The notes under the pieces: model-generated | What the model was told of the DNA's origin: nothing | Database searches by the model: none | Seen by the model: only the letters and a program-made list of their open reading frames with translations | In this document: positions 1 to 24,873 of the stretch, piece by piece | Layout: each line of letters opens with the position of its first letter | How positions within the stretch are numbered: the stretch's first letter is position 1 | Origin: Kineococcus radiotolerans SRS30216 = ATCC BAA-149 | GTDB taxonomy: Bacteria > Actinomycetota > Actinomycetes > Actinomycetales > Kineococcaceae | Assembly (NCBI RefSeq): GCF_000017305.1 | Contig: NC_009664.2 | Span: 1,980,001 to 2,012,000 of the forward strand | Length of the DNA: 32,000 nucleotides | Direction of reading: 5' to 3' | Program-made: the position numbers and the translations under genes

Positions 1-629
1 CCAGCGGGGTGCTCGGGCCGCTGCCGGAGGAGCCGGCGCGGTTGCTGCGCATCGCCGACGAGAACGCCGACCGGCTCGCGGCGCTGGTGAACGACATCCT
101 GGACGTGGAGCGCCTGGACGCCGGGACGATGCCGCTGGAACCGGAGGACGTCGACCTGGCCGACCTGGCGCGCGCCGGGGTGGAGCAGCTGGAGAGCACC
201 GCCGTGGCCGCCGGGGTGGAGCTGGTGCTCGGCGAGGTGGGGCCGGCGCGGGTGCACGCCGACCCGCACCGCATCGCGCAGGCCCTGACGAACCTGGTGG
301 GCAACGCCGTGAAGTTCAGCGAGGCCGGTGGGCGGGTCGAGGTGACCTGCCGGCGCACCGCGCGGGAGGCCCGGCTGGCGGTGCGCGACGAGGGCCGCGG
401 CATCCCCCACGACCAGCTGGAAGCCGTGTTCGACCGCTTCCGGCAGGTGTACGCCAGCGACGCGCAGCGGCAGTCCGGCAGCGGCCTGGGCCTGGCCATC
501 ACCAAGGGGATCGTCGAGCGCAGCGGCGGGCGGGTCGAGCTGCGCAGTCGGCCGAACGAGGGAAGCGAGTTCACCGTGGTGCTGCCCCTGACCGATGCAG
601 AGGAGGACGCACCCCCACCCGAACCCTGA
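1..629 (+). CDS. Sensor histidine kinase, C-terminal part (5' end lies outside window)
   Basis: Reading frame is open to the window edge. It shows the tail of a DHp helix (ENADRLAALVNDILDVERLD) followed by HATPase_c N/G1/G2-type boxes (LTNLVGNAVKFS, RDEGRGIP, GSGLGLAI). TGA at 627-629. Confidence 0.9.
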   Translation, partial: SGVLGPLPEEPARLLRIADENADRLAALVNDILDVERLDAGTMPLEPEDVDLADLARAGVEQLESTAVAAGVELVLGEVGPARVHADPHRIAQALTNLVGNAVKFSEAGGRVEVTCRRTAREARLAVRDEGRGIPHDQLEAVFDRFRQVYASDAQRQSGSGLGLAITKGIVERSGGRVELRSRPNEGSEFTVVLPLTDAEEDAPPPEP

Positions 630-644
630 CCCGAGGAGGCACCC

Positions 645-1025
645 GTGGCGCGCACGGTCCTCGTCGTCGACGACGAGCCGCACCTGCGGGAGCTGGCCGC
701 CCTCAGCCTGGAGCGCGTCGGCGGGTTCGCGGTCCTCACCGCCGGCTCCGCGGAGGAGTGCCTCGCCGCCGTCGCCGAGCACGGCCCCGACCTGGTGCTG
801 CTGGACGCGATGATGCCCGGCACCGACGGGCCGGGGACGCTGGCGCGGTTGCGCGCCGCACCGGCGGGCGCCGCGGTGCCCGTGGTCTTCCTCACCGCCA
901 GCGTGCAGCGCCACCAGGTCGCGCAGCTGGGGGCGCTGGACGTCCTGGGCGTCCTGAGCAAGCCGTTCGACCCGATGGAGCTGTCGGCGCAGGTCTGCGG
1001 GCTGGCGGGCTGGCACGGGCCGTGA
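645..1025 (+). CDS. Stand-alone CheY-like receiver (single-domain response regulator)
   Basis: GTG 645 lies 5 nt after GAGGAGG (633-639). Receiver signature present: VVDDE acidic pair, LLDAMMPG phospho-acceptor Asp, LTAS, SKPF Lys. No output domain. Confidence 0.9.
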   Translation: MARTVLVVDDEPHLRELAALSLERVGGFAVLTAGSAEECLAAVAEHGPDLVLLDAMMPGTDGPGTLARLRAAPAGAAVPVVFLTASVQRHQVAQLGALDVLGVLSKPFDPMELSAQVCGLAGWHGP

Positions 1026-3442
1026 CCTCCGCCGTCGCCGAACCCGCCGCCCTGCTCGCGGCCCCCGGCCGCACGGCCCTCGTCGTCGACGACGACGAGA
1101 TGATCTCCCACCTCGTCTCGGCCGGCCTGCGCGCCGCGGGCATGACCGTCGTGACCGCCTCCGACGGCCGCGAGGCCCTGCAGCGCCTCGCCGAGGCCGT
1201 GCCGGACGTCGTGGTCTCCGACGTCAACATGCCCGGCATGGACGGCTTCGCCCTCGTCAGCCGCCTGCGCGCCGAACCCGCCACCCGCGCGGTGCCGCTG
1301 GTGTTCCTCACCTCCCGCGCCGAGGCCTCCGACGCGCTCGCCGCGCTGCGGCTGGGCGCGGACGACTACGTGCGCAAGCCGTTCGACCTGACCGAGCTGG
1401 TGGCCCGGGTCGTGGCGAAGCTGGACCGCCCACCGGTACCGGTCGACCAGCTCCTGCACGACCCGCGCACCGGGCTGCTCTCGCCGTCCGCGATGGCCGC
1501 CGAGGTGGGCCGGGAGGTCGAACGGGCCGGCGCCGGGGGCCGGCAGGGGGCCCTGGCCGTCCTGGAGGTCGCGGAGCTGTCGCCGCTGCGGGCGCGGTTC
1601 GGCGCGCGCGGCGAGGCGGAGCTCGCGCTGCAGGTCGCGGCCGTGCTGGGGGCGGCGACCACGGCCGTCCCCGGTGCCCGGCTGGGCCGCGCCCAGGACG
1701 GGCGGTTCCTCGCGCTGCTGCCCGACGTCGCCCCCGACCGCGTGCACGAGCTGCTGGCGGAGGCGTCGCAGGAGGTGGTGCGTCGCCGCGTCACCGTCGC
1801 CGGGGAGGCCCTGGACCTGACGCCCGTCACCGGGTGGGTCGCCCTGACCGACGTCGTGGGCGCCGAGCACCCCGTGGACCCCGACGCCGACCCCCGCGGC
1901 GCTGCGGGGACCGGGGAGCGGGCCGTGGCCCTGGCCGCCACCGCGGCCGGGGCCGCCTCGATGCACCTGGACCTGCAGCCGGTGCGCTGGACGACGCAGC
2001 TGGGTGGCGTGCCCGTCCCCGCGCAGGCTCCGGCCGGCCCGTCGCGGTGGCGGCGGTGGCGCTCGGCGGTCCGCACCCCGTTCCAGGTGCTGCTGACGCT
2101 GGTCGTGGGGGTCGTGGTCCCGTTCCTGGTGTACGTCGCCGTCTGGCGGTTCACGGGGATCGACCTGGGCCCGGTGGCGTACCTGGTCGTCGTGGGCGCG
2201 CTGGTGGTGACGGCGGGGTCCATCTGGGTGGAGGGCCTGCTGGCGCTGGACCCGGTGCGCCCGCCCGCCGAGACCGGCGGACCGCACCCGCGCGCCTCGG
2301 CGATCATCGCCGCGTACCTGCCGAACGAGGCCCTGACGATCGTGGAGACCGTCGAGGCGTTCCTGGCCCAGGACTACCCCGGCGAGCTGCAGGTCGTCCT
2401 CGCCTACAACGGACCCGACCGGCTGCCGGTGGAGGACGCGCTGGAGGCGATCGCGGCGCGCGACCCGCGCTTCGTGCCGCTGCGCGTGGAGGGTTCCACC
2501 TCCAAGGCGCAGAACGTCAACGCGGGGCTCGCCGTGGTGAGCGGTGAGTTCGTCGGCGTGTTCGACGCCGACCACCACCCCGAACCCAGCTCCTTCCGGC
2601 GGGCCTGGCGCTGGCTCGGCGGCGGTTACGACGTCGTGCAGGGCCACTGCGTCGTGCGCAACGGCGACGCCAGCTGGGTGGCGCGCACCACCGCGGTCGA
2701 GTTCGAGTCCATCTACGCCGTCAGCCACCCGGGGCGGGCCCGCCTGCACGGCTTCGGCGTCTTCGGCGGCTCCAACGGCTACTGGCGCACCGACCTGCTG
2801 CGCCGCACCCGCATGCACGGGTTCATGCTCACCGAGGACATCGACTCCAGCCTGCGCGTCGTCGAGGCCGGTGGCCGGATCGCCAACGACCCGGCCCTGC
2901 TGTCGCGCGAACTGGCCCCCACGACGCTGAAGGCGGTGTGGAACCAGCGGATGCGCTGGGCGCAGGGCTGGTTCCAGGTCTCGCTCAAGCACCTGCCGAG
3001 GGCGTGGGGTTCCCCGCACCTCGGGCTGCGGCAGAAGCTGGGCATGACGTTCCTGCTGGGCTGGCGCGAGGTGTACCCGTGGATCTCGTTGCAGGCCTAC
3101 CCCGTGGTGGCGTACCTGGCGTGGCGCTCCGGGGGTCTGCAGAACCTGGACTGGGCGGTCCCGCTGTTCGTCCTCACCACCCTGTTCACCACCTCCGTCG
3201 GTCCCGGCCAGACGCTCACCGCGCGGCGGGTGGCCGTCCCCGAGATCCGCCGGCAGCGGTGGTGGTTCCTGCGGTACCTGTTCGTGTCGTCGTTCTTCTA
3301 CACGGAGTTCAAGAACGTCATCGCGCGCGTCGCGCAGATCAAGGAGTTCACCGGTGAGCGGGAGTGGAAGGTGACCCCGCGCAGCGTGGTGGTCGCAGGG
3401 GCACCGCCGGTGCCCGGACCGCGGGACGGGAGCGGGTCGTGA
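1022..3442 (+). CDS. Receiver / degenerate GGDEF-like / transmembrane / family-2 processive glycosyltransferase fusion protein
   Basis: GTG 1022 overlaps the upstream TGA (GTGA, 1022-1025). REC motifs: VVDDDE, VVSDVNMPGMDG, LTSR, VRKPF. The GGDEF-fold region starts at DPRTGLL, with the GGDEF site replaced by AQDGRF (1691-1708). Two hydrophobic helices follow, then GT2 motifs DAD (2564-2572), TED (2831-2839) and QRMRW (2945-2959), then at least 3 more hydrophobic helices. Confidence 0.85.
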   Translation: MTSAVAEPAALLAAPGRTALVVDDDEMISHLVSAGLRAAGMTVVTASDGREALQRLAEAVPDVVVSDVNMPGMDGFALVSRLRAEPATRAVPLVFLTSRAEASDALAALRLGADDYVRKPFDLTELVARVVAKLDRPPVPVDQLLHDPRTGLLSPSAMAAEVGREVERAGAGGRQGALAVLEVAELSPLRARFGARGEAELALQVAAVLGAATTAVPGARLGRAQDGRFLALLPDVAPDRVHELLAEASQEVVRRRVTVAGEALDLTPVTGWVALTDVVGAEHPVDPDADPRGAAGTGERAVALAATAAGAASMHLDLQPVRWTTQLGGVPVPAQAPAGPSRWRRWRSAVRTPFQVLLTLVVGVVVPFLVYVAVWRFTGIDLGPVAYLVVVGALVVTAGSIWVEGLLALDPVRPPAETGGPHPRASAIIAAYLPNEALTIVETVEAFLAQDYPGELQVVLAYNGPDRLPVEDALEAIAARDPRFVPLRVEGSTSKAQNVNAGLAVVSGEFVGVFDADHHPEPSSFRRAWRWLGGGYDVVQGHCVVRNGDASWVARTTAVEFESIYAVSHPGRARLHGFGVFGGSNGYWRTDLLRRTRMHGFMLTEDIDSSLRVVEAGGRIANDPALLSRELAPTTLKAVWNQRMRWAQGWFQVSLKHLPRAWGSPHLGLRQKLGMTFLLGWREVYPWISLQAYPVVAYLAWRSGGLQNLDWAVPLFVLTTLFTTSVGPGQTLTARRVAVPEIRRQRWWFLRYLFVSSFFYTEFKNVIARVAQIKEFTGEREWKVTPRSVVVAGAPPVPGPRDGSGS

Positions 3443-3732
3443 ACGAGACCGAGGCCATGCGGGCGTTGACCGCCGACCTGTGGGAGCAGCTGCGCCCGCT
3501 GGTGCGCGCGCGCCTGGAGCAGCTCGACGAGTGGGTCGCGACCGGCCAGCAGCTCGACGGGCGCGCGGAGGCCGTGCGCACCGCGCACAACCTGTCCGGT
3601 TCGCTGGGCAGCTACGGCCGCCACGAGGGCTCCCTCGCCGCCCGGGCGCTGGAGCACGCCCTGCTCGCCGACGAGAGCCCGGGCCTCGTCGTCGACCTGG
3701 TCGCCGCGCTGCACCGGGCGGTGGACGCGTGA
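3439..3732 (+). CDS. Hpt-like histidine phosphotransfer protein
   Basis: GTG 3439 overlaps the upstream TGA (GTGA); the alternative start is ATG 3457. About 97 aa, predicted helical, with the Hpt-type motif AHNLSGSLGSYG (His codon 3586-3588; compare HxLKGS). G/C-rich third positions. Confidence 0.7.
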   Translation: MNETEAMRALTADLWEQLRPLVRARLEQLDEWVATGQQLDGRAEAVRTAHNLSGSLGSYGRHEGSLAARALEHALLADESPGLVVDLVAALHRAVDA

Positions 3733-4922
3733 GCCGGCACCCGACCGCGGCACCCGGCGGCCCGTCCGCCGGTGGCCGCCTGGCGGGGCTGGAGGGGTAC
3801 CGGGGGATCGCCGCGGTGCTCGTCGTGGTGTTCCACGTCTACCAGGAGCTCCGCGTCGACGGGGAGTACTTCCTGGTGGGCACGTGGGCCCACCCGTGGC
3901 TGTACGCGCTGGACACGACGGTCGACCTGTTCTTCGCCCTCTCGGCGTTCCTGCTGGCGCTGCCCTACCTGCGCAAGGCCGTCGCCGGGGAACGCCCCCT
4001 GGGGGCCGCGGAGTTCCTGCGCCGCCGCGCCGTGCGCATCGTGCCGCTGTACTACCTCGTCATCACCGCGGTGTGGGCCACCCGCAACGGCAGCCTGCCC
4101 GGCGAGTGGCGGGACCTGCTGGAGCACCTGACGTTCACGCAGGTGTTCGACGACCAGCGCATCTTCTACACGGTGGGCCCGGCGTGGTCGCTGGCCGTGG
4201 AGGTGCAGTTCTACGTGCTGCTGGCCGTGCTGGGGGCGGCGGTGTGCGCGGTGTGCCGCCGGGCGCGGCGGCGCGGGTCGCGGATCGCCGTCGCCGCCGC
4301 GTCCGGGCTGCTGCTGGTCGCCGTGGGCGTCGGGTGGAAGCTCGCCGCGCACGCGCTGGGGCGTCCGGAGACGGACTGGAGCACCTGGTTCTCGCTGCCC
4401 GCGAAGCTGGACGTGTTCGGGTTCGGGGTGCTGCTGGCGCTGCTGGTGGCCCTGCGGGGCACCGCCCCCTCGCGGCTGCTGCCGCCGCTGATGGTGGTGT
4501 GCTCCGCCCCGCTGCTCCTGGCGGCGGTGTGGGCGGGCACGCAGCAGGGGCTGGCCGCCGAGCTGCGGCACACCCTCGCCGGCGCGGGCTTCACGCTGCT
4601 GCTGGGCGCCACCGTCCTCAGCGGTCCCCGCTCGGTGGCCGCCCGGGCGCTGGAGGCGCGGCCCGTGGCCTTCCTCGGCCTGATCAGCTACAGCCTGTAC
4701 CTGTGGCACGAGCCGCTGATGCTGTGGATGACGGCACTGCCGGTGTGGCCGACGACGTCCAGCCCGGCGACGCTGGCCCTGGGGACGGCGCTGCTGCTGC
4801 CGGTGGCCGTGCTGGTGGCCTGGGCCAGCTACTGGGTGGTCGAGCACCCCGCGGGCGCCCTGCGCCGGACCCGGACCGCGGACGGCCGTCCGCGCCTCTA
4901 CTACGGCGAGGGCGCCGGCTGA
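3729..4922 (+). CDS. Acyltransferase family 3 membrane protein (polysaccharide O-acyltransferase type)
   Basis: GTG 3729 overlaps the Hpt TGA (GTGA). N-terminal LEGYRGIAAVLVVVFH motif, about 10 hydrophobic segments, and C-terminal LGLISYSLYLWHEP motif typical of the OafA/Acyl_transf_3 family. Confidence 0.85.
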   Translation: MSRHPTAAPGGPSAGGRLAGLEGYRGIAAVLVVVFHVYQELRVDGEYFLVGTWAHPWLYALDTTVDLFFALSAFLLALPYLRKAVAGERPLGAAEFLRRRAVRIVPLYYLVITAVWATRNGSLPGEWRDLLEHLTFTQVFDDQRIFYTVGPAWSLAVEVQFYVLLAVLGAAVCAVCRRARRRGSRIAVAAASGLLLVAVGVGWKLAAHALGRPETDWSTWFSLPAKLDVFGFGVLLALLVALRGTAPSRLLPPLMVVCSAPLLLAAVWAGTQQGLAAELRHTLAGAGFTLLLGATVLSGPRSVAARALEARPVAFLGLISYSLYLWHEPLMLWMTALPVWPTTSSPATLALGTALLLPVAVLVAWASYWVVEHPAGALRRTRTADGRPRLYYGEGAG

Positions 4923-4964: not shown

Positions 4965-4969
4965 GGGGG

Positions 4970-5062
4970 CGGAGGGCATGGGATTCGAACCCATGAGGAA
5001 GGAGTGGGTACCTCCCTAGCGGTTTTCAAGACCGCCGCCTTCAACCACTCGGCCAGCCCTCC
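4970..5062 (-). tRNA. tRNA-Ser, anticodon UGA
   Basis: The reverse complement reads GGAGGGC...GCCCTCC-G, giving a 7-bp acceptor stem. It has the D-loop GCCGAGTGGTTGAAGGC, the anticodon loop CT-TGA-AA, a long variable arm (class II) and the T-arm GGTTCGAATCC. CCA is not encoded. Confidence 0.9.
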
Positions 5063-5109: not shown

Positions 5110-5484
5110 TCAGCGCCCGGCGAGCAGCGGGGCGAGGGCGCGCGCCATGTCGCGGGCGCGGGGCAGGTCGCGGGCGGCGGCGGGCCGGCGCACGGCGAGG
5201 ACGCCCTCGCCGGGGGCGGGGTCGGTGACGTCGAGCACGACGGCGCGGCCGTCGACGAGCATCGCGTCGAGGAGGCGCTCGGCGTCGGGGGCGGCGGTAG
5301 CGACCCGCGAGCGCAGCAGGTGCCCGACGGCGGTGGTGCGGGCCAGGCGCAGCAGGAGCTTGTCGTCGTCGAGGTGGTTCAGCTCCGGGCGGCGCACCAG
5401 CAGCCGGGCCAGAGCGGCGATCTCGGCGGCGGTGGCGGGCGGAGGGGGCGCGGGGGCGGTGCGGGGGCGGGAGTGGTGCTGCAC
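5110..5484 (-). CDS. Hypothetical protein (about 124 aa)
   Basis: G/C-rich third positions. GTG 5484 lies 5 nt after GAGGAAG (rc of 5490-5496); the ORF could extend to GTG 5508. No motif I recognise. Confidence 0.55.
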   Translation of the reverse strand: MQHHSRPRTAPAPPPPATAAEIAALARLLVRRPELNHLDDDKLLLRLARTTAVGHLLRSRVATAAPDAERLLDAMLVDGRAVVLDVTDPAPGEGVLAVRRPAAARDLPRARDMARALAPLLAGR

Positions 5485-5571
5485 GGTGGCTTCCTCGGGG
5501 CTGCGCACGGTGTCAGCCCCGGGTGGGCTGTCCGCTCCCCCTGGTTCTCGGCGCCGGGGGGTCGGGCCGTG

Positions 5572-6384
5572 ATGCGCCGTTCGGGGGGTCGTCCTGGGGT
5601 AGCGTCGGGCGACCGTCGTCCCCGATCACCGAGCGAGTCCACGTTGGCCGAAGCCCTGCGCTGCGTCGTCGTCCTGCCCACGTACGACGAGGCCGACAAC
5701 GTCGCCGAGATGCTGGAGCGGGTGCTCGCCTGCCCCGTCGCCCCCGACGTCCTCGTGGTGGACGACTCCTCCCCCGACGGGACGGGCGCGATCGTCGAGC
5801 GCGTCGCCGCGACCCACCCGCCGGGGCGGGTGCGGCTGCTGACCCGCACCACGAAGGACGGCCTGGGCGCGGCCTACCGGGCCGGGTTCGCGCACGCCCT
5901 GGCCACCGGGGACCACGACGTCGTCGTGCAGATGGACGCCGACGGGTCGCACCCGGTGGAGGCGCTGCCCCGGATGCTGGCCGAGCTCGCCGACGGCGCC
6001 GACCTCGTCCTCGGGGCCCGCTACGTGCCCGGCGGGGCCCTCGACGACGCCTGGCCCTGGTACCGCAAGGCCCTCTCGCGCGGGGCGAACGTCTACGCGC
6101 GGCTGCTGCTGCGCGCCCCGGTGGCCGACCTCACCGGCGGCTTCAAGGCCTGGCGCGCGGACCTGCTGCGCTCGCTGGACCTCTCGCAGCTGACCGCCGC
6201 CGGCTACGCGTTCCAGATCCAGACGACGCTGGCGGCGCTGCAGGCGGGCGCGACGGTGCGCGAGGTGCCGATCCTCTTCACCGAGCGCACCCGCGGCACC
6301 TCGAAGATGTCCAAGGAGATCATCGGCGAGGCGATGCTCGCGGTGCTGCGGATGCGCCGGCACGGCCCCACCGGGCGCCGCTGA
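5572..6384 (+). CDS. ppm1: Polyprenol-phosphate mannosyltransferase (Dpm1/Ppm1-type GT2)
   Basis: Carries VVLPTYDEADN, VVDDSSPDGTG, KDGLGAAYRAGF, QMDADGSHP, GARYVPGG, TGGFKAWR and GTSKMS, the classical Dpm1/Ppm1 motif series. Start is uncertain (GTG 5569, ATG 5572 or TTG 5644). Confidence 0.85.
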   Translation: MRRSGGRPGVASGDRRPRSPSESTLAEALRCVVVLPTYDEADNVAEMLERVLACPVAPDVLVVDDSSPDGTGAIVERVAATHPPGRVRLLTRTTKDGLGAAYRAGFAHALATGDHDVVVQMDADGSHPVEALPRMLAELADGADLVLGARYVPGGALDDAWPWYRKALSRGANVYARLLLRAPVADLTGGFKAWRADLLRSLDLSQLTAAGYAFQIQTTLAALQAGATVREVPILFTERTRGTSKMSKEIIGEAMLAVLRMRRHGPTGRR

Positions 6385-6395
6385 GGCCCGCTCCC

Positions 6396-6812
6396 TCAGG
6401 CGGGGAGCGCGGAGACGTTCACCATCCAGTCGACCCCGAAGCGGTCGATGAGGGCGCCGTACTCGTCGCCCCACACCTGGACCTCCAGCGGGGTGGTGAC
6501 CTCCCCGCCCTCCGCGAGACCGGCGAAGCAGGCGCGCAGGTGCGCGGCGTCGTCGCCGGAGAGGCAGAGGGCGACGTTCCCGCCGGTGCTCGCGGCCGCC
6601 CCCGGCATGGCGTCGGAGACCATGAGGGTGAAGCCGTCCGGGGTGTCGAGCTGGCCGTGCATGACGCCGTCGGGGTCGGCGCCCCCGCCGCCCCCGCCGA
6701 ACTCGGCGAAGGTGGAGACGGTGACCTCCCCGCCGAGCACGGAGCGGTAGTGGTCGAGGGCCTCGCGGGCGGTGCCGGCGAGGCAGACGTAGGGGCTCAG
6801 ACGGGGTGCCAC
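6396..6812 (-). CDS. VOC/glyoxalase-fold protein, PhnB/YjdN-like
   Basis: GTG 6812 lies 6 nt after AGGAGG (rc of 6819-6824). LSPYVCL...AREALDHYRSVLGGE...MHGQL...LMVSD...FGVDWMV matches the PhnB-like family pattern. The upstream part of ORF 6396..6875 was discarded. Confidence 0.8.
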   Translation of the reverse strand: MAPRLSPYVCLAGTAREALDHYRSVLGGEVTVSTFAEFGGGGGGADPDGVMHGQLDTPDGFTLMVSDAMPGAAASTGGNVALCLSGDDAAHLRACFAGLAEGGEVTTPLEVQVWGDEYGALIDRFGVDWMVNVSALPA

Positions 6813-7069
6813 GGGGAACCTCCTGGGAACGGGCCGGGGGTCCGGCGCCACCGCCCGGCGGGTCCGGGCGGACACCCTGGGGACCCGGGGCGGCCGCGGG
6901 ACTCATCGGTGCCGCGGCGGCGACCACCCCGTGATTGCGTCACGTTCGGTGATCTGGGATGGTCACCCGGTCAGCAGCGCCGCGAAGCGGTCCACCGTCC
7001 CGCGCGGTGCCTCCTCGGCTCGACCGGGCTGCCCGACACGTCCGGAGCACGCTCGCGGGAGGTCGACAG

Positions 7070-8227
7070 GTGCAGGGCCAGGTACGGGACGACGACGCCG
7101 ACGCCGTCGCCCAGCTGCTGGAGCTGGCCCGCGACATCTTCGGGACCCCGGTGGCCGCCCTCACCCGGGCGACGGGGGCGACGCACCACCACGTCGAGCA
7201 GACCGCGAGCAGCCTCGACCCGCACGCCACGGTCCGGCTGCTGGCCGACACCGACCTGGACACCTGCCGGCTCGTCGTCGACGTCGTCCGTCCCGACGGC
7301 GAACCCGGCGGGCGGATCGTCGGGGTCCACCACGAGCCGGTGGAGACCCTGGGCTCGCGCCAGCAGGAGGCCCTGCACGTCGTCGCGGCCCTGGTCGCCG
7401 GGGTGCTGCACCACCGCGAGCGCCGCCGCGTCGAGCACGACGACCGGGTCGCCTCCCTCGACGCGCTGCTGGCCGGTCACGGCCGCCTCACCGTCGTGCA
7501 GCCCATCGTGGACCTGCGGGCCGGGCAGGTCGTGGGGGCGGAGGCGCTGAGCCGGTTCACCGGTCCCGAGGGGGCCGCCCGGCGTCCCGAGCAGGTGTTC
7601 GGCGACGCCCGGTCCGCCGGGGTGGGGGTCCAGCTGGAGCAGGCGGCCATCGCCTCGGCCCTGCCGCTGCTGCGGGAGGTGCCGGCGGGGGCGTACCTGA
7701 GCGTGAACGCCTCCGCGGAGGCGCTGCTGGACGAGCGCACCCACGAGCTGCTGCTGTCCGGGCACCCGGAGCGCCTCGTCGTGGAGATCACCGAGCACGA
7801 CCCGGTGCCCGACTACGACGCCCTGACCGCGGCGACGGCCGCGCTGCGCGCGCACGGGGTGCGGATCGCCGTCGACGACGCGGGGGCCGGCTTCGCGAGC
7901 CTGCAGCACGTCCTGCACCTGACCCCGGACGTCGTGAAGCTGGACACCGCGTTCGTGCGGGGCATCGACGTCGACCCCGCCCGCCGGGCCGTGGCCCGCG
8001 CGCTGGTGGGCTTCGCCTCGGAGCTGGGCTCGACGATGGTGGCCGAGGGCGTGGAGCGGGCCGGGGAGCTGGCGGTCCTGCGCGACCTGGGGGTGGAGTG
8101 CGGCCAGGGGTACCTGCTGGGCCGGCCCACCGCGAGCCCCGCGTGGGGCGAGCGGGGCAGCGACACGACGACCGTCGTCCTGTCCCGGCACCCGGAGCAC
8201 GAGGAGCCCCCCCACCCGGTCGGGTGA
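7070..8227 (+). CDS. GAF-like N-terminal domain + EAL domain protein (putative c-di-GMP phosphodiesterase)
   Basis: GTG 7070 lies 7 nt after GGGAGG (7057-7062). EAL catalytic set is present: GAEALSRF, SVNAS, EITEH, DDAGAG, KLD, EGVE, QGY. Confidence 0.85.
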   Translation: MQGQVRDDDADAVAQLLELARDIFGTPVAALTRATGATHHHVEQTASSLDPHATVRLLADTDLDTCRLVVDVVRPDGEPGGRIVGVHHEPVETLGSRQQEALHVVAALVAGVLHHRERRRVEHDDRVASLDALLAGHGRLTVVQPIVDLRAGQVVGAEALSRFTGPEGAARRPEQVFGDARSAGVGVQLEQAAIASALPLLREVPAGAYLSVNASAEALLDERTHELLLSGHPERLVVEITEHDPVPDYDALTAATAALRAHGVRIAVDDAGAGFASLQHVLHLTPDVVKLDTAFVRGIDVDPARRAVARALVGFASELGSTMVAEGVERAGELAVLRDLGVECGQGYLLGRPTASPAWGERGSDTTTVVLSRHPEHEEPPHPVG

Positions 8228-8252: not shown

Positions 8253-9149
8253 TCAGAAGGTGACGATGCTCAGCGCGCCCTTGCCGTAGCGGGTCACCTC
8301 GACCGTGAGGTCGAGACGGCTGCCGGTGCGGGTCGCCCAGTCGGCCACGTCGGGGCGCAGGGCCTCGCCGGGCGCGTAGCTGGCGTACAGCTTCAGGTGC
8401 GCGGCACCCTCCACGTTGAACAGCGACGCCATGATGTTGAGCACCTCCTTGGCGTTGACCGTGAGGTTCTCCGGCAGCTCCCGGTCCTCGATGGCGGCTT
8501 CGCTGGCCCCGGGGGGCAGCAGGCCGATCGAGGCGCCGGCGTGGGCGGCCAGCGCGAAGTCGAAGACCACGACGGCCTTGGACTTCAGGTGGTCGTCCAC
8601 GTACAGCCCGACCAGCGACCCGGGCTTGCCGCCGACCGGCACGGGCCGGCCGTCGGCGAGCTCGACGTCGCGGTTGAGCAGGTCGGAGAGCAGGTTGCGG
8701 ATGGCGAGGTTGGAGGGCAGCGGGTTGACCTCGAACTTCACCTCCCCCTGCGCGACGGCCGTCGTGGCGGTGGCCGGGCCGGCGTCGCCGCCGAGGACCG
8801 GGGCCAGCGCCGCGGCGAACTGCTCGGGGGTGAAGGGCTTGGCGATGAGGAAGAGGGCGCCGGCGGCGGCGGCCTTCTCCCGCATCTCCTCCGAACCCTC
8901 CGACGTCACGAAGCCGAACGGCACGTCGAGCCCGGAACCGCGCAGGTTCTGCAGCATCTCGTAGCCGCTGGCCTCGGGCATGTTCCAGTCCGAGAGGACG
9001 ATGTCGGGGTTCTCCTTGCGGACCGCGTCGAACCCCTCCTTGCCGTTCTCGGCCTGGACGACGTCGACCCAGTCGAACCCCGCCTGGCGCAGCGTGCGGA
9101 TGACGATCTGCCGCATGACGCGGCTGTCGTCGACCACCAGGGCCTTCAC
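8253..9149 (-). CDS. CheY-like receiver fused to a CheX/CheC-like C-terminal domain
   Basis: GTG 9149 follows GGAGGGG. REC motifs: VVDDSR, LSDWNMP, KPF. The C-terminal half aligns by eye with the neighbouring CheX (VVVFDF/IVTVSV, NAKEVLNIMAS/DSLGEVANIVGG) and keeps E-x2-N, but not the D/S at -4. Confidence 0.75.
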   Translation of the reverse strand: MKALVVDDSRVMRQIVIRTLRQAGFDWVDVVQAENGKEGFDAVRKENPDIVLSDWNMPEASGYEMLQNLRGSGLDVPFGFVTSEGSEEMREKAAAAGALFLIAKPFTPEQFAAALAPVLGGDAGPATATTAVAQGEVKFEVNPLPSNLAIRNLLSDLLNRDVELADGRPVPVGGKPGSLVGLYVDDHLKSKAVVVFDFALAAHAGASIGLLPPGASEAAIEDRELPENLTVNAKEVLNIMASLFNVEGAAHLKLYASYAPGEALRPDVADWATRTGSRLDLTVEVTRYGKGALSIVTF

Positions 9150-9657: not shown

Positions 9658-10037
9658 GCCTGGCTCACCTCCGGCAGCAGCCCGAGCAGGGACAGCTTCT
9701 CCTCCAGCGCGTCCACGGTGAACGGCTTGATGAGGTACTCGTGCGCACCGGCGGCCAGGGCGCGGACGATCTGCCCGTGCTCGGCCTCGGTGGTGACCAT
9801 CATCAGCGTCAGCGCGCGGTACTCGCGGTTCGCCCGGACCTGCGTGACGAACGTGAGACCGTCCATCACCGGCATGTTCCAGTCGACCGTGGCGAGGTCG
9901 GGCAGCGGGCCCGCCTCGAGGACCTTCAGCGCCTCGGCGCCGTCGGCCGCTTCGACCGTCTCGTACCCGAGCTTCCGCAGTGCACCAGCGATGATCTTCC
10001 GCATGGCGCGGGAGTCGTCGACGACAAGAGCCCTCAT
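9654..10037 (-). CDS. cheY: Chemotaxis response regulator CheY
   Basis: 127-aa single receiver: VVDDSRAMR, VDWNMPVMDG, VTTE, IKPF. ATG 10037 overlaps the cheR TGA (ATGA). Confidence 0.9.
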   Translation of the reverse strand: MRALVVDDSRAMRKIIAGALRKLGYETVEAADGAEALKVLEAGPLPDLATVDWNMPVMDGLTFVTQVRANREYRALTLMMVTTEAEHGQIVRALAAGAHEYLIKPFTVDALEEKLSLLGLLPEVSQA

Positions 10038-10864
10038 GCCTGACCTCCGTTCTTGGGACGGTGGACCGAAACCCTTCCGATGAGTTCGCGGTCCCAGTTC
10101 TCATCGACGCCGAGCGTCGTTTCTGCACCCCCGAGGAACATGTATCCCCCGGGCTTGATGACCTTGCGGACCCGGGACAGGATGTCCCGCTTGGTCTCCA
10201 GGTCGAAGTAGATGAGCACGTTCCGCAGGAACACCACGTCGAACTGCCCGAGGGCGGCGTAGGAGCTCGTGAGGTTCAGCTGCTGGAAGCGCACCATCTT
10301 CTTGAGGTTGTCGTTCACCTGCCACTGGGTGCCGACCCGCGTGAAGTGGCGCACCAGCAGGGGCGCCGGCAGTCCGCGGTTCATCTCCAGCTGCGAGTAA
10401 CGACCCGCCTTGGCCTTCTCCAGCACCTCGGTGGAGAGGTCGGTGCCGATGATCTCGGCGCGCCACCCCTCCGCGACGACGCTGTCCTGCAGCCCCATGG
10501 CCAGGCTGTAGGCCTCCTGGCCGGTGGAGGAGGCCGCGGACCAGACGCGCAGGGAGCGCGTCGTGGCCCGGGCCTGCTTGAGGGCGGGGACCACGGCGGT
10601 CGAGAACGCCTGGAACGGGGCGCCGTCGCGGAACCACGACGTCTCGTTCGTCGTCAGCGCCTCGACGATGGCGGTCTGCGCGCGGCGGTCGGGGCGCAAC
10701 CGGATGCCGTCGACGTAGGCGGAGACGTCGGCCGCGCCCGCGGCGCGTGCCAGGGGCACGAGCCGGGACTCGACGAGGTACTCCTTGCCCTTCTCGAGGA
10801 CGATCGCACTCTCCTTGCGCACGAGCGTGCAGACCCAGTCGAAGGCCGTGGGCGTGAGGGCCAT
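10034..10864 (-). CDS. cheR: Chemotaxis protein methyltransferase CheR
   Basis: ATG 10864. CheR N-domain (FDWVCTLVRKESAIVL), TNETSWFRD, and the SAM motif VWSAASSTGQEAYSLAM; also VFLRNVLIYFD. The upstream P/R-rich part of ORF 10034..11116 was discarded. Confidence 0.93.
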   Translation of the reverse strand: MALTPTAFDWVCTLVRKESAIVLEKGKEYLVESRLVPLARAAGAADVSAYVDGIRLRPDRRAQTAIVEALTTNETSWFRDGAPFQAFSTAVVPALKQARATTRSLRVWSAASSTGQEAYSLAMGLQDSVVAEGWRAEIIGTDLSTEVLEKAKAGRYSQLEMNRGLPAPLLVRHFTRVGTQWQVNDNLKKMVRFQQLNLTSSYAALGQFDVVFLRNVLIYFDLETKRDILSRVRKVIKPGGYMFLGGAETTLGVDENWDRELIGRVSVHRPKNGGQA

Positions 10865-10865
10865 G

Positions 10866-12125
10866 TCACCACCTGCCTTGGGAGGGACGGGCCGCGGGAG
10901 CGGCGGGGCGGGACGCCGGCGGACGCGCCGGCGGGGTGCTGCGGGTGGGGCTGGTCGAGACGGTGGGGCGGGTGCTGCCGGCCGCCGGGGGGCGCGCGGC
11001 CGGGGGGTGCGGGGCCGACGCGGTCCGGGCGCCCGGCCCGAGCCGGCGCTGGATCGCGTCGGCGATGGCCGACAGGGGCAGGACCTCGTCCGCGATGCCC
11101 TCGCGGGTGACGGCACCGGGCATCCCCCAGACCACCGAGGTGGCCTCGTCCTGGGCCAGGACCTGGCCGCCGGCGGCCGCGATGTCCTTGCAGCCGAGCT
11201 TGCCGTCCGACCCCATGCCGGTGAGGATCACCGCGAGGAGCTCCCCGCCGAAGGCGGCGACCGCCGAGCGGAGCATGACGTCCACCGCCGGTCTGCAGAA
11301 GTTCTCGGCAGGTCCCTGGTGCAACTTGATCACCATCTGCGGACCGCGCCGGGCGACCTCCATGTGGAAGTCGCCGGGGGCCACGTAGACCGTCCCGGCC
11401 ACGACGGGTTCGCCGTCGGTGGCCTCGACGACGCGCAGGGCGCTGCTCTTGTCCAGCCGCTGGGCGTAGAGGCGGGTGAAGACGGGGGGCATGTGCTGGG
11501 TGACCAGCACGGGCACGCCGAGGGTGGCGGGCAGCTTCGCCAGGACCGCCGAGAGGGCCTCCGGGCCCCCGGTGGAGGAGCCGATGACGAGCGCGCGGGG
11601 GGTCTTGGCCGCACCGGTGGGGGTGCGGGTGGTCACCGGCGTCGCCGGGCGGGCCGGGGTCGCGGCGGGTGCGCTGGGCGCGGGCGCCGCGGGGGGCGCC
11701 GCGAGGTGGCCCAGGTGCGGCACGAGGGCCTTGATCTTGGGGATCAGCTGCTGGCGCACCGACTCCATCGACTCCGCGACGCTGCCCACGTTGGCGGGCT
11801 TGGTGACGTAGTCGGAGGCGCCGGAGGACAGCGCCTCGAGGGTGGCGGTGGCGCCGCGCTCGGTGAGGGTGGAGAACATGATGACCGGCAGCCGCCGGTC
11901 GATCTTGCGGATCTCCTTGATCGCCTCGAGCCCGTCCATGACGGGCATCTCGATGTCGAGGGTCACGACGTCGGGCTTGAGCTGGAGGATCTTCTCCAGG
12001 GCGAGCTTGCCGTTGGCGGCCGTGCCGACGACCTCGATGGCCGGGTCGGAGGCGAGCACGTCGGTGACCAGCCGCCGGACGACGACGGAGTCGTCGACGG
12101 TGAGCACCTTGATGCGTTGACTCAC
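10866..12125 (-). CDS. cheB: Chemotaxis methylesterase/deamidase CheB (REC + CheB_methylest) with a Pro/Ala-rich C-terminal tail
   Basis: GTG 12125 (VSQRIKVLTVDD). REC shown by DIEMPVMDG. Esterase motifs: IGSSTGGP, TQHMP, LTGMGSDG, WGMP. A 57-aa low-complexity tail runs to the stop codon 10866-10868, 1 nt before the cheR ATG. Confidence 0.93.
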   Translation of the reverse strand: MSQRIKVLTVDDSVVVRRLVTDVLASDPAIEVVGTAANGKLALEKILQLKPDVVTLDIEMPVMDGLEAIKEIRKIDRRLPVIMFSTLTERGATATLEALSSGASDYVTKPANVGSVAESMESVRQQLIPKIKALVPHLGHLAAPPAAPAPSAPAATPARPATPVTTRTPTGAAKTPRALVIGSSTGGPEALSAVLAKLPATLGVPVLVTQHMPPVFTRLYAQRLDKSSALRVVEATDGEPVVAGTVYVAPGDFHMEVARRGPQMVIKLHQGPAENFCRPAVDVMLRSAVAAFGGELLAVILTGMGSDGKLGCKDIAAAGGQVLAQDEATSVVWGMPGAVTREGIADEVLPLSAIADAIQRRLGPGARTASAPHPPAARPPAAGSTRPTVSTSPTRSTPPARPPASRPAAPAARPSQGRW

Positions 12126-12202
12126 GCCGCACCTGACCTTCCCTGGCGACGGCGCAGGGGTCGGCGCCGTGGAACGCCGCCCGGGCCTGGGCGGCTCCTC
12201 TT

Positions 12203-12229
12203 CCATCGGCCGCCGGTGGCCAACCCTGA
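12203..12229 (-). promoter_or_regulatory. Putative sigma-28 (FliA/WhiG)-type promoter of the cheB operon
   Basis: Minus strand reads TCAG-N15-GCCGATGG about 77 nt upstream of the cheB GTG. The -10 matches GCCGATAA in 6/8 positions. The same bipartite motif occurs at 19284-19310 and 24165-24191. Confidence 0.4.
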
Positions 12230-12322
12230 AGCCCGCGTCCCGCTCCTCGTCGCTGCGCGCACACAGCTACTGTGCGTCGCCAAGCGGTCACGCGTCGACC
12301 GGTGCCGCGTCGCCCCCGTCCC

Positions 12323-12362
12323 CCGGCGGGGATCCCGCGCAGTGCTGCGGGATCCCCGCCGG
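12323..12362 (-). terminator. Hairpin downstream of ycnI
   Basis: CCGGCGGGGATCCCGC (12323-12338) pairs with GCGGGATCCCCGCCGG (12347-12362): 16-bp perfect stem, 32 nt after the ycnI stop. No U-tract. Confidence 0.45.
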
Positions 12363-12393
12363 AGGTGCGGCCGGCGCTGCGCGCCGGGGGGGG

Positions 12394-13149
12394 TCAGGCG
12401 CGGCGGCGGCGCAGCAGGACGACGACGAGGGCCGCGAGGCCGAGGGCCAGGCCCGCACCCGCGAGGCCGCGGGCCACCGGGTCCGCCCCCGGCGCCGCCG
12501 TGGTCGAGGCCGCCGGGGTGGTCGCCGGGGTGGCGGCCGCCTCGGCGTGCGACCCGCCGTGGTGGTCCTCGCCCGCCGCGGTGGTGGTGAACTCCGGCGC
12601 GGGCTTGTCCGGCTCCCCGGCCCCCTCCGCGGCGACCTCGCTCCAGTCCGCGACCTCGCCGTCGGCGTAGGTCTGGACGGTGGGCAGGACCACGCGGGTC
12701 CCGGCCCCGGGCAGGGGGCCGACGTTGGCCTCGAACTCCTCGAACTGGCCGACGGCGATCCCCGCCGACCCCGGGTCCGCGGTCCAGGTGACGCTCAGCG
12801 GCGCCTTCGTCAGGGTCGTGCCGCCGACCTCGACGGGCGCCGGCAGCGCGCCCTCGGTGACGACGGCGCTCCAGCCCGCCACGGGCCGGACCGCGACGTA
12901 GGAGAAGGGGTGCTCGGTCGGCAGGGAGACCCGCACCGACGTCGTCGCGGCGGTGTCGGACTCGTTGGGCACCCGGAACGTCACGACGCTGTAGCCGTCG
13001 GCGGCCGTCGTGTCGGGGGTGGCGTGGACGTGCGCCGCGGCGGGCACGGCGGCCAGCAGGAGCGCACCGCCCGCGGTGGCGGCGACCGCCAGGGCGCGGC
13101 TGGTCCGGGCGCGCGCGGGCAGGGTGGAGCGCAGGGTGGAGCGGTTCAC
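12394..13149 (-). CDS. ycnI: YcnI-family (DUF1775) copper-binding protein with signal peptide and C-terminal membrane anchor
   Basis: GTG 13149 lies 5 nt after GAGGAAG. A signal peptide ends AAAHVHATP, giving a mature N-terminal His. FRVPNES motif is present. C-terminal hydrophobic helix plus RRRRA. Confidence 0.85.
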   Translation of the reverse strand: MNRSTLRSTLPARARTSRALAVAATAGGALLLAAVPAAAHVHATPDTTAADGYSVVTFRVPNESDTAATTSVRVSLPTEHPFSYVAVRPVAGWSAVVTEGALPAPVEVGGTTLTKAPLSVTWTADPGSAGIAVGQFEEFEANVGPLPGAGTRVVLPTVQTYADGEVADWSEVAAEGAGEPDKPAPEFTTTAAGEDHHGGSHAEAAATPATTPAASTTAAPGADPVARGLAGAGLALGLAALVVVLLRRRRA

Positions 13150-13170
13150 GGTGTCTTCCTCAGGGGTGGG

Positions 13171-13803
13171 TCAGGACGTGGGGACGGGGGCGGAGCCCAC
13201 CGGCGGACCACGTCGCCTGACCCGGCGCGCGACCACGGACCGCGGTCGCGCGGGGGGCGTCGCGGGGAAGGGCGCGGGGCGGGCGGCGACGAAGCGCAGC
13301 AGGTCCCGCAGGACCCGGGCCAGGGGCCGCAGCCACGCCCACAGCGACCACAGCAGCCGCTCCCCGTGCAGCAGCAGGAGCAGGGCGGCGACGGTCGCCG
13401 CGACGTGGGCCAGGGTCATCGCCGCCGAACCGGACCCGGCGGACCCGGCGGCGCCGTCGACGGCGCCGGTCAGCGGGGTCCACTCCAGGTGGTGGCCGTG
13501 GGCGACGACCGCGACGGCCTGCGCGGGGCAGGCGTCGAACAGCTCGTGCAGCGTGACCTGACCGCCGCCGAGGAGCCCCGCCAGCCCGGACCGGCTGAAG
13601 CGGCGGCCGGCGAGCAGCAGGCTGAGCGCCCCCACCACGACGGCCACGGCGAGCAGCAGCGGGATCCCGGGCGCCCGCCCGCCCGCGGCGAGGTGTGCCC
13701 CGGCGGCCAGGCCGACGACCGTGGTGGCCACCGCTCCCGCCCGGGCGCAGCGCAGCGCCCCGCGCACCGGCGAGGTGCCGGCGGTCGCGGGGCGGTTCGG
13801 CAC
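13171..13803 (-). CDS. Hypothetical integral membrane protein with a His cluster
   Basis: 3-4 hydrophobic segments and VVAHGHHLEW. G/C-rich third positions. Same strand as ycnI and 21 nt upstream of it. Confidence 0.6.
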   Translation of the reverse strand: MPNRPATAGTSPVRGALRCARAGAVATTVVGLAAGAHLAAGGRAPGIPLLLAVAVVVGALSLLLAGRRFSRSGLAGLLGGGQVTLHELFDACPAQAVAVVAHGHHLEWTPLTGAVDGAAGSAGSGSAAMTLAHVAATVAALLLLLHGERLLWSLWAWLRPLARVLRDLLRFVAARPAPFPATPPARPRSVVARRVRRRGPPVGSAPVPTS

Positions 13804-13833
13804 CCCCCCACGCTACCGGGAGGGCGGCGGGGC

Positions 13834-14763
13834 TCAGGCGGGGCCGAAGGCCGCTTCCCACGGGCGCAGGAGGACGGCGCGGGCGTCGGAGGACAGCAGG
13901 TCGGCGACGACCTCGGCGTGCACGACCCCGCTGACGACGTTCCACAGGCCCTCGGCCCCGTCGGCGGCGTCGAGGCCCCCGGCGCGGAAGGCGCGGACGG
14001 CGAGCAGCTGGGCGACGGCGGCGGTGCGCACGCGGTCGGACAGGTGAACCGCCCAGGACGCGTCGTGCACCGCACCCGCCCACTCCCCCGCACCGGGGCG
14101 GCTGGCGGCAGCCACGGCGCGCAGGCAGGCGCGGTCGGTGCCGTCGAGGCGGCGCAGGCGGTCCAGGACCCGCTCGACCCCGGCCTGGGCCTCCCCGAGC
14201 CCGGTCGGGCGCTCGGGCAGCGGGGCGAGGTCGCGGCAGGCCTGCAGGTAGGGGTGGGCCAGGACCCGGCGGGCGTGGTCGGGCAGCCGGTCGCCGAGGT
14301 AGGCGGAGACGGCGGCGTCGGCGAGGACGTCGGCGGCGCGCCCGGCGTCCTCGGTGCGCAGCCGGGGCCCGCCCTCCAGCGGCGCGGACCAGGTCCAGTC
14401 GAAGACGTCGTGGTGCACGAGGCGGACCAGCGCGTCGGCGTCGGCGATGGTGCTGGTCTGCAGGACCCGCACGACCCCCCGCTCGACCCGGGCCCCGGAG
14501 ACCTCGTCGGCGAAGTCGTCGCGGGCGAGGCCGTTGGCCACCTGGTGCAGGACGTCGGTCAGCTGGGGGACGCCGTCGCAGGCGGTGCGCACCGCGTCCC
14601 AGGCGGCCGTGCGGGTGGCCGGGTCGTGGCGGGCGGCGAGGACGTCGATCTCGCGCGGGCCGCAGTCCAGGGCCCGGAGCAGGACCTCCGCGGCGGAGTC
14701 GCCCGCGGGCAGCCGCACGAGGTCGAAACCCAGCACGGGGGAGCTCACCAGGGAGTAGTGCAT
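13834..14763 (-). CDS. Hypothetical protein (309 aa)
   Basis: ATG 14763 lies 9 nt after GGAGG. Balanced amino-acid composition and G/C-rich third positions. The N-terminal 46 codons of ORF 13834..14901 were discarded. Confidence 0.6.
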   Translation of the reverse strand: MHYSLVSSPVLGFDLVRLPAGDSAAEVLLRALDCGPREIDVLAARHDPATRTAAWDAVRTACDGVPQLTDVLHQVANGLARDDFADEVSGARVERGVVRVLQTSTIADADALVRLVHHDVFDWTWSAPLEGGPRLRTEDAGRAADVLADAAVSAYLGDRLPDHARRVLAHPYLQACRDLAPLPERPTGLGEAQAGVERVLDRLRRLDGTDRACLRAVAAASRPGAGEWAGAVHDASWAVHLSDRVRTAAVAQLLAVRAFRAGGLDAADGAEGLWNVVSGVVHAEVVADLLSSDARAVLLRPWEAAFGPA

Positions 14764-14963
14764 GGTCGTCCGCCTCCAGGCCGGTCGTGCGCCGTCCGGT
14801 CGGTCGGCGTGGTTCCACCCTGACACTGCGTGACCCGCCCGGCGAGGCGTCGTCAGCCGTCCGGCGGCACGTCGGCGTGTCGGACCCCCCGCGCAGCTCA
14901 CCGGCCGCGACCGCGCTGCTCCGTCCGGGGGACGCGCGCGCCGGTGCGCCGTAACGTCGGGTC

Positions 14964-19214: not shown

Positions 19215-19283
19215 GTGGACTCCCACTTCTCGCGTCGGGGGCGGCCCCGGGCGGGACCACTGTGCGTCTCTTGCTCTCCGTGC

Positions 19284-24041: not shown

Positions 24042-24164
24042 GTCAACCTTCCGTACGCGATGGTGGGCGGGCGAGTACCGCCCACCGGGGTCGAGCAGAC
24101 TCAGAGGTGATCGGGACGCGGACCGGCGGGGTGAACCCCCGGGGGCCGACAACCCTCGTTCGGC

Positions 24165-24191
24165 CCATCGGCAGCCCGGCGCGTCGCCTGA
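24165..24191 (-). promoter_or_regulatory. Putative sigma-28 (FliA/WhiG)-type promoter of the conservon
   Basis: Minus strand reads TCAG-N15-GCCGATGG about 120 nt upstream of the cvnA ATG. Core and spacing are identical to the cheB and cheA sites. Confidence 0.4.
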
Positions 24192-24225
24192 CCCTCCGGG
24201 GGGTTCGTGTGATCGGGAGCAGGGG

Positions 24226-24864: not shown

Positions 24865-24873
24865 TGTCGCGGC

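Follow-up and report, generated by a model that had tools for sequence, protein, structure and literature searches.

To our knowledge, all well-studied synthase-dependent exopolysaccharide systems of bacteria (cellulose, alginate, Pel, and poly-N-acetylglucosamine (PNAG) in E. coli) are switched post-translationally by cyclic diguanylate (c-di-GMP). In E. coli, a REC*-GGDEF* tandem in BcsE, that is, a receiver followed by a GGDEF domain, regulates cellulose secretion by binding c-di-GMP (PMC8892547). Direct fusions of receivers to synthase-like enzymes have been catalogued in an archaeal census, where one or two receivers precede a BcsA-like PF13641 glycosyltransferase (the Methanothermobacter MTH_548 type); these proteins are reported only from Methanobacteriaceae and were listed without functional data (PMC5847659). 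Here, we analyze a 32,000-nucleotide (nt) stretch of Kineococcus radiotolerans SRS30216 (contig NC_009664.2, positions 1,980,001–2,012,000; hereafter the window), in which five genes on the + strand, read directly from the sequence at positions 3–4922, on balance probably encode a completely split phosphorelay of the His-Asp-His-Asp type that ends in a receiver joined to a processive membrane polysaccharide synthase of glycosyltransferase family 2 (GT2). Full-text literature searches aimed at this bacterial REC-GGDEF-GT2 synthase family found no study of it, and the author of the preliminary description of this DNA likewise knew of no characterized example.

The layout given in that description, namely five same-strand genes joined by a 15-nt gap carrying GAGGAGG and by three GTGA overlaps, proved correct at every coordinate on direct reading. 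The first gene enters the window as the 3′ part of a histidine kinase gene (3–629, stop codon TGA at 627–629, start upstream of the window), comprising the end of HisKA (Pfam, 27.3 bits; cut-off, 26.9) and HATPase_c (102.8 bits; cut-off, 26.4). Its complete product, encoded at 7588–9066 of contig L001, is a protein of 492 amino acids (aa) with two PAS domains, a HisKA domain with an SHELRTPL H-box, and HATPase_c; it contains no membrane segment and is cytoplasmic. After an intergenic spacer of 15 nt (630–644), with the ribosome-binding site GAGGAGG at 633–639, the second gene (645–1025, GTG start at 645) encodes a stand-alone receiver of 126 aa, referred to below as REC1 (Response_reg, 82.2 bits; cut-off, 30.2). 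D9, D10, the phospho-acceptor D54 (codon 804–806), and T84 are all present in REC1, and among its neighboring orthologues D10 and D54 are found in 28/28 and D9 and T84 in 27/28. The genes for the synthase (1022–3442), a histidine-containing phosphotransfer (Hpt) protein (3439–3732), and an acyltransferase-3 (AT3) membrane protein (3729–4922) follow through GTGA start/stop overlaps at 1022–1025, 3439–3442, and 3729–3732. For genes 2–5, the starts coincide with those of the genes called on public contigs (126, 806, 97, and 397 aa), and the products of genes 3 and 4 match exactly the NCBI proteins named "response regulator" (P0001) and "Hpt domain-containing protein" (P0121). A convergent tRNA-Ser(TGA) gene at 4968–5062 bounds the operon. 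A search of the window and of contig L001 for a c-di-GMP riboswitch or other RNA elements detected the tRNA alone, and a scan for promoter and terminator consensus sequences across the operon returned nothing informative. Hidden Markov model (HMM) scans, which had been proposed as a check on the preliminary description, place all five products in the expected Pfam families above the gathering cut-offs.

The 97-aa protein carries the motif AHNLSGSLGSYG, from which it had been read as an Hpt protein, and this identification is borne out by Pfam (Hpt, 29.8 bits; cut-off, 24.6), by profile matches to solved Hpt structures, and by the predicted fold. The codon singled out earlier as that of the phospho-His, 3586–3588, is CAC and corresponds to His50; both His50 and Gly54 (HxxxG) are invariant in 34/34 synthase-adjacent sequences, so that the lack of conservation named in advance as an argument against the Hpt assignment is not seen. 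The Pfam family is also matched by 21/23 synthase-adjacent Hpt sequences from other genomes. When the Hpt protein was used as a single query against PDB, only noise was returned (haemoglobin, V-ATPase), which made a profile of synthase-adjacent Hpt sequences necessary, and a word-indexed protein search with the same query found three Kineococcus proteins only. The profile, built from sequences gathered at synthase loci by iterated HMM searches, matches the Hpt structures of CheA P1, BarA, ArcB, and Ypd1 at E-values down to 1e-7, with the phospho-His aligned. The AlphaFold2 (AF2) model is a confident four-helix bundle (predicted local distance difference test (pLDDT), 94; predicted TM-score (pTM), 0.83) with His50 in the second helix (residues 39–58), and its top Foldseek matches are Hpt proteins, namely RcsD/YojN (TM-score 0.69), plant AHPs, CheA P1, and BarA.

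Taken as modules, these proteins recall the multistep phosphorelays with free intermediates, namely Spo0F/Spo0B/Spo0A, Sln1-Ypd1-Ssk1, ShkA-ShpA-TacA, and RcsC-RcsD-RcsB, which use the same four module types and His-Asp-His-Asp logic; Ypd1, ShpA, and RcsD share with the Kineococcus protein a true four-helix-bundle Hpt. The locus differs from these systems in that the modules are distributed over four separate polypeptides without a hybrid kinase, and in that the output is a membrane enzyme rather than a transcription factor.

This membrane enzyme, the 806-aa product of the third gene, is a response-regulator synthase composed of a receiver, a degenerate GGDEF domain, two predicted transmembrane helices, a GT2 domain, and further predicted transmembrane helices at the C-terminus, as delineated by Pfam, an alignment of 12 sequences (A1), an AF2 model (mean pLDDT 69, domains mostly 75–90, pTM 0.47), and Foldseek. 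The GT2 catalytic domain (2288–2971) scores 91.9 bits with Pfam Glyco_tranf_2_3 (cut-off, 27), and Glycos_transf_2 matches as well. It contains the motifs AAYLPNE, SKAQNVN, FDADH (DxD at 2564–2572), TEDIDS (TED at 2831–2839), and QRMRWAQGW (QRMRW at 2945–2959), whose key residues (D515 and D517 of DxD, E605 and D606 of TED, and Q642, R645, and W646 of QxxRW) are conserved in 81/81 relatives. The claim that the terminal receiver sits on a membrane GT2 synthase is thereby confirmed, all processive-synthase motifs being kept in these 81 relatives. Transmembrane helices are predicted on either side of the domain, at about 2045–2242 and about 2990–3349; in the AF2 model, two long helices precede GT2 and three or four follow it, those at the C-terminus with pLDDT values of about 50–70. 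Fold matches of the C-terminal half include PcManGT, BcsA, and hyaluronan synthases (Foldseek E-values of 1e-13 to 1e-10), the best match by TM-score being the Pyrobaculum mannosyltransferase PcManGT (TMt 0.72).

The synthase shares with BcsA the D, DxD, TED, and QxxRW motifs of a processive membrane GT2, and its polypeptide likewise includes a cytoplasmic regulatory domain; it differs in having no PilZ domain, and its sequence similarity to BcsA, the nearest solved GT2, is weak (E-value of 1e-7 only). The nearest named GT2 family is that of PgaC/IcaA (NCBIfam TIGR03937), of which PgaC makes a β-1,6 linkage. Assignment as a PgaC/IcaA-type PNAG synthase was considered and rejected, as the score of 78.1 bits is far under the cut-off of 422.3 and no deacetylase occurs among the recurring neighbor families. 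For the archaeal REC-GT2 fusions introduced above, neither a GGDEF-fold spacer nor an Hpt relay has been described.

The receiver of the synthase, REC2 (1076–1414; Response_reg, 101.1 bits), has a complete phospho-acceptor pocket formed by D24, D67 (codon 1220–1222), T97, and K119. D24 and K119 are invariant or nearly so in A1, the position of T97 is Thr in 75/81 relatives, and the phospho-acceptor D67 is kept in 69/81. Between this receiver and the membrane helices lies a domain that the preliminary description had suspected to be GGDEF-like and had not called; it is resolved here as a degenerate GGDEF fold (1454–1981) by a Pfam GGDEF match that is sub-threshold in the window protein (15.5 bits against a cut-off of 23.8) and present in most homologues, by structure, and by the state of its motifs. 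In Foldseek searches, the N-terminal half of the synthase model matches the folds of PleD, WspR, and DgcR at E-values of about 1e-16, and in NCBIfam LapD is a weak match of the middle domain. At the signature position, relatives show xxGRF and the window protein QDGRF (1694–1708): GGDEF or GGEEF occurs in 0/12 sequences of A1, and the Glu of the fourth motif position is Glu in only 2/81 relatives. In the window protein, Glu and Ala occupy the first and the second metal-binding Asp position, respectively, the guanine-binding positions are substituted as well, and R192 stands at the Asn position. An inhibitory RxxD site (I-site) was also sought, and no R...D column pair (i, i+3) is conserved in more than 50% of the 81 relatives within residues 1–345. 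With the GG(D/E)EF active site replaced and RxxD absent, the synthase protein cannot make c-di-GMP. It is a response regulator of the PleD/WspR type whose cyclase domain has been inactivated and which is joined to a divergent membrane polysaccharide synthase, and the intact receiver alongside the loss of both active site and I-site makes it a clear case of a signaling enzyme repurposed as a transducer domain.

The resemblance to PleD, WspR, and DgcR thus extends to the REC and GGDEF folds, the linker between them, and the intact receiver pocket; the differences are the xxGRF signature in place of GG(D/E)EF, the missing RxxD, and the fusion in cis to a synthase, with no diffusible messenger. 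BcsE is the closest functional analogue, since there too a REC-GGDEF tandem serves as a synthase regulator, but it combines a degenerate receiver with working I-sites and acts in trans, whereas the module described here has an intact receiver, lacks the I-site, and forms part of the synthase polypeptide. Some relatives of about 1100 aa (P0029, P0058, which corresponds to L050 7965–11330, P0098, P0025, and P0038; also those of L057, L063, and L077) carry two tandem, mutually similar REC-degenerate-GGDEF modules ahead of the synthase. The near-identity of both modules in P0029 suggests that they arose by internal duplication. This architecture, which recalls the REC-REC′ pseudo-dimer of PleD, may represent a covalent pseudo-dimer of the regulatory module and fits with a dimer of such modules being the working unit. 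An active N-terminal cyclase in these longer proteins was considered and rejected, because both of their GGDEF signatures are degenerate.

Relatives of the synthase were found in at least 556 species-representative genomes from six or more phyla, distributed over Actinomycetota, Chloroflexota, Deinococcota, Alphaproteobacteria, Gemmatimonadota, Acidobacteriota, and Dormiibacterota. Gene neighborhoods were mapped for 81 synthase loci with an open reading frame (ORF) and HMM pipeline, in which the kinase, the stand-alone receiver, and Hpt were counted as a trio when lying within 5 kb of the synthase gene on the same strand. The trio adjoins the synthase in 26/81 loci, including 23 of the 43 actinobacterial ones. 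At least four gene orders occur, in every one of which the kinase-REC pair is adjacent, and the Hpt gene follows this pair unless the synthase gene intervenes. The order kinase-REC-synthase-Hpt-AT3 is found in Kineococcus and Motilibacteraceae, and without AT3 in Kocuria; synthase-kinase-REC-Hpt, with or without a following AT3, in Cellulomonas, Actinotalea, Cryobacterium, Demequina, and Mycolicibacterium; kinase-REC-Hpt-synthase in Leptolinea; and kinase-REC-Hpt-porin-synthase in Sphingomonadales, where the porin position was deduced from a 1.6-kb gap and cluster membership. In a metagenome-assembled genome of Nitriliruptoraceae (L061), a 230-aa REC-Hpt fusion is encoded directly downstream of the synthase gene (5878–6570, +), and no kinase was detected on the remainder of this 10-kb contig. 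The domain scores above curated cut-offs and the recurrence in other phyla together indicate that the arrangement is more than chance. Co-conservation elsewhere, whose absence the preliminary description had named as an argument against it, is seen for the kinase, receiver, and Hpt genes; of the 29 loci that contain Hpt, only 12 also have the acyltransferase gene.

The phospho-acceptor of the synthase receiver also varies with gene content. In 12/81 synthases, the Asp is replaced by Ala, Ser, or Thr, often together with changes of K119 and D24, and these twelve receivers are, judging from their residues, pseudo-receivers. They belong to Deinococcus (L068, L070, and L080), Actinomycetota (L043, L054, L055, L056, L064, L066, and L078), and Chloroflexota (L063 and L075). 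None of the twelve has an adjacent Hpt gene, and the Asp is kept in all 31 synthases that do have one (Fisher p = 0.0025, uncorrected for phylogeny). Retention of the Asp in step with Hpt is what one would expect of a relay that feeds this residue. Most of the twelve Asp-less synthases are accompanied by AT3, often by a glycoside hydrolase of family 30 (GH30) as well.

Recurrent partners, identified by clustering the neighboring ORFs of the 81 loci, bear on the nature of the polymer. A protein combining tetratricopeptide repeats (TPR) with a PgaA-type β-barrel (PgaA_barrel, 31.7 bits; cut-off, 27) is encoded in all 9 proteobacterial, Gemmatimonadota, and Acidobacteriota loci (for example, L079 4901–6640, +; the others are L025, L049, L057, L069, L072, L073, L077, and L082), and the presence of such a porin beside the synthase points to a synthase-dependent secretion system. 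A GH30 gene occurs in 18/81 loci (for example, L067 12749–14332, −) and lies upstream of the synthase gene in L068; by a wide margin, the closest solved relative of its product is 5NGK (E-value of 2e-51), which is the Bacteroides endo-β-1,6-glucanase BT3312 of subfamily GH30_3 (PMC5481569). Together with PgaC as the nearest GT2 family, the GH30 and porin partners suggest, as a best guess, that the product is a β-1,6-linked glycan, possibly a glucan or PNAG-like. The PgaABCD/IcaADBC systems are thus resembled in the nearest named GT2 and in the PgaA-type porin. They differ in the large score deficit (78 versus 422 bits), in the absence of a PgaB/IcaB-type deacetylase and of a PgaD/IcaD partner from the recurring neighbor families, and in the GH30 enzyme, which is nearest to a β-1,6-glucanase rather than to a PNAG hydrolase.

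The fifth gene of the operon (3729–4922) encodes an integral multi-pass membrane protein of 397 aa that matches Acyl_transf_3 (PF01757), the family of IcaC, OafA, OpgC, and SucT, with 98 bits against a cut-off of 31 over residues 19–365 and has a weak NCBIfam match to SucT; it is presumed to be a polysaccharide O-acyl (acetyl or succinyl) transferase. Modification by AT3 proteins is an accessory function comparable to that of IcaC, OpgC, and SucT-type acyltransferases, and the co-encoding of AT3 with the synthase has a parallel in IcaC of ica operons. An AT3 gene stands next to the synthase in 31/81 loci, and its presence in fewer than half of the Hpt-containing loci marks it as accessory, outside the signaling core.

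These observations can be assembled into a working scheme. The soluble double-PAS kinase would sense an intracellular cue, autophosphorylate, and phosphorylate D54 of REC1, from which the phosphoryl group would pass to His50 of the Hpt protein and on to D67 of the synthase receiver. REC2 and the catalytically dead GGDEF-fold domain would form a PleD/WspR-like module, and phosphorylation may dimerize or reposition this module so as to open or close the cytoplasmic GT2 site, by analogy with PleD and WspR; the module would then take the role that the c-di-GMP-binding PilZ domain has in BcsA. The synthase would make and translocate the polymer, and the co-transcribed AT3 protein would O-acylate it. 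The relay order, the sign of the signal (activating or inhibiting), and the conformational change are inferred by analogy from the PleD/WspR and BcsA-PilZ precedents. The core of the earlier proposal, a relay that ends on a membrane synthase, is supported by the identities of the modules, their phospho-residues, and the linkage of their genes, and each in silico result that could have spoken against it (on Hpt matches, His conservation, and gene linkage) came out in its favor.

Several points weigh against this interpretation. The complete trio is missing from 55/81 loci, so a four-step relay is one option within the synthase family, and in trio-less loci (for example, L009, L025, L041, and L052) the receiver may be fed directly by a kinase. 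A permissive HMM search of the kinase-bearing, Hpt-less loci for overlooked Hpt genes found none, its sole new match being a weak one to a hybrid kinase of L062 whose tail resembles Hpt. The association between Asp loss and Hpt is uncorrected for phylogeny, and the twelve losses probably represent about 4–6 independent events. Foldseek E-values for the Hpt model are weak, at 0.08 or higher, which is common for helical bundles of small size. In the synthase model, with its pTM of 0.47, the relative placement of the domains is unreliable, so the gating mechanism is drawn from analogy only. GH30 and the porin are both absent from the Kineococcus window, and the inference about the product is consequently carried over from orthologues. 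Finally, full-text literature searches turned up no phosphotransfer or phenotype data for any member of the synthase family.

The same modules could be wired differently. In a branched topology, which we consider unlikely, the kinase would phosphorylate the synthase receiver directly, and REC1 and Hpt would act as a phosphate sink, a back-transfer route, or an entry for other kinases; this wiring would tune the duration of the signal in place of a linear relay. Direct transfer of this kind is plausible in the synthase family, since L009 and L025 have the kinase only and L041 and L052 have kinase and REC with Hpt undetected, and it is general knowledge that the same four modules can support reverse phosphotransfer, as in ArcB and CheY-sink systems. 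However, it is the kinase-REC1 pair that stays together in every arrangement, while the synthase gene is found on either side of the signaling genes or between REC1 and Hpt; the REC-Hpt fusion of L061 resembles the REC-Hpt part of unorthodox kinases, which relay forward; and retention of the synthase Asp tracks the presence of Hpt.

A further question is whether the degenerate GGDEF domain, rather than the receiver, is the real control point, binding c-di-GMP, GTP, or another nucleotide in the manner of BcsE, PelD, PssE, or FimX, so that the synthase would be nucleotide-gated as in other synthase-dependent systems, with phosphorylation acting only as a modulator. The GGDEF fold of the middle domain, its weak LapD match, the flanking of the Kineococcus operon by an EAL gene and by GGDEF-EAL and GGDEF genes, and the regulation of other synthases by degenerate GGDEF receptors, such as the REC*-GGDEF* tandem of BcsE (PMC8892547), all fit this idea. 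We nonetheless hold it to be distinctly improbable, as RxxD is conserved nowhere in the REC-GGDEF region of the 81 relatives, the signature reads xxGRF with metal- and guanine-binding positions replaced and Arg at the Asn position, and the receiver has a full phospho-acceptor pocket, unlike the degenerate REC* of BcsE. It is likewise conceivable, and in our view very improbable indeed, that the GT2 is non-processive and loads a sugar onto polyprenyl phosphate or a lipid (as do PcManGT, DPMS, and GtrB), the relay then controlling the modification of an envelope glycolipid or glycoconjugate. PcManGT is indeed the best TM-score match of the C-terminal half, and the PgaC/IcaA score falls far under its cut-off. 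Against this stand the invariance of the TED and Q(R)xRW motifs, which are typical of processive synthases, the fold matches to BcsA and hyaluronan synthases, which are strong as well, the PgaA-type exporter in all 9 proteobacterial, Gemmatimonadota, and Acidobacteriota loci, and the secreted GH30 glycanase-like gene in 18 loci.

If the preferred reading, a split relay ending on a processive synthase, is true, the receiver on the synthase constitutes a second, phosphorylation-based switch for exopolysaccharide synthesis beside c-di-GMP, and polymer output is a direct biochemical read-out of a phosphorelay. Phosphorelay and synthase-dependent exopolysaccharide system are each of a known kind, and their combination here, which is widespread, appears from the literature searched to be new. 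A broader proposal, which we put forward tentatively as possible and somewhat short of probable, is that there exists, with the Kineococcus operon as its founding locus, a widespread class of synthase-dependent exopolysaccharide systems whose synthases are gated directly by a His-Asp(-His-Asp) relay. Such a class would have arisen when a PleD-like diguanylate cyclase was short-circuited by fusion to the synthase that it targeted and its cyclase activity was subsequently lost, with phosphorylation replacing c-di-GMP; the polymer, O-acylated by AT3, would be a pustulan-like β-1,6-glucan of bacteria or another β-1,6 glycan related to it. The GH30 and PgaA-porin context also hints at a bacterial β-1,6-linked glycan that may be new. 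The synthase family includes desiccation- and radiation-tolerant genera (Kineococcus, Deinococcus, Geodermatophilus, and Blastococcus), in which protective matrices matter.

The surroundings of the operon contain further signaling and glycosyltransferase genes. An EAL-domain protein is encoded 2 kb downstream of it (window 6959–8227, +), and upstream of the kinase, on contig L001, lie genes for a GGDEF-EAL protein (232–2559, +) and a 519-aa GGDEF protein (5469–7028, −), as well as a divergent 125-aa ORF without a Pfam match (7119–7496, −). Past the tRNA-Ser gene, there is a second, small GT2 of soluble type (window 5365–6384, +; Glycos_transf_2, 95 bits; public contig call, 246 aa), which resembles synthases of polyprenyl-phosphate sugars. 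A 298-aa response regulator (8253–9149, −), whose N-terminal receiver is combined with a C-terminal domain (about 170 aa) that has no Pfam match, heads a chemotaxis cluster with CheX, CheY, CheR (10034–11116), CheB (10866–12206), and CheA (16746–19283). Two long ORFs without Pfam matches overlap on opposite strands (12169–14823, +, 884 aa; 13160–14818, −, 552 aa); a DUF1775 protein gene (12394–13149, −) adjoins them, and another ORF without a Pfam match is found at 14955–15881 (+). A very long ORF at 20937–25397 (−), with NIT (nitrate/nitrite-sensing) and HATPase_c domains, probably encodes a large sensor kinase-like protein.

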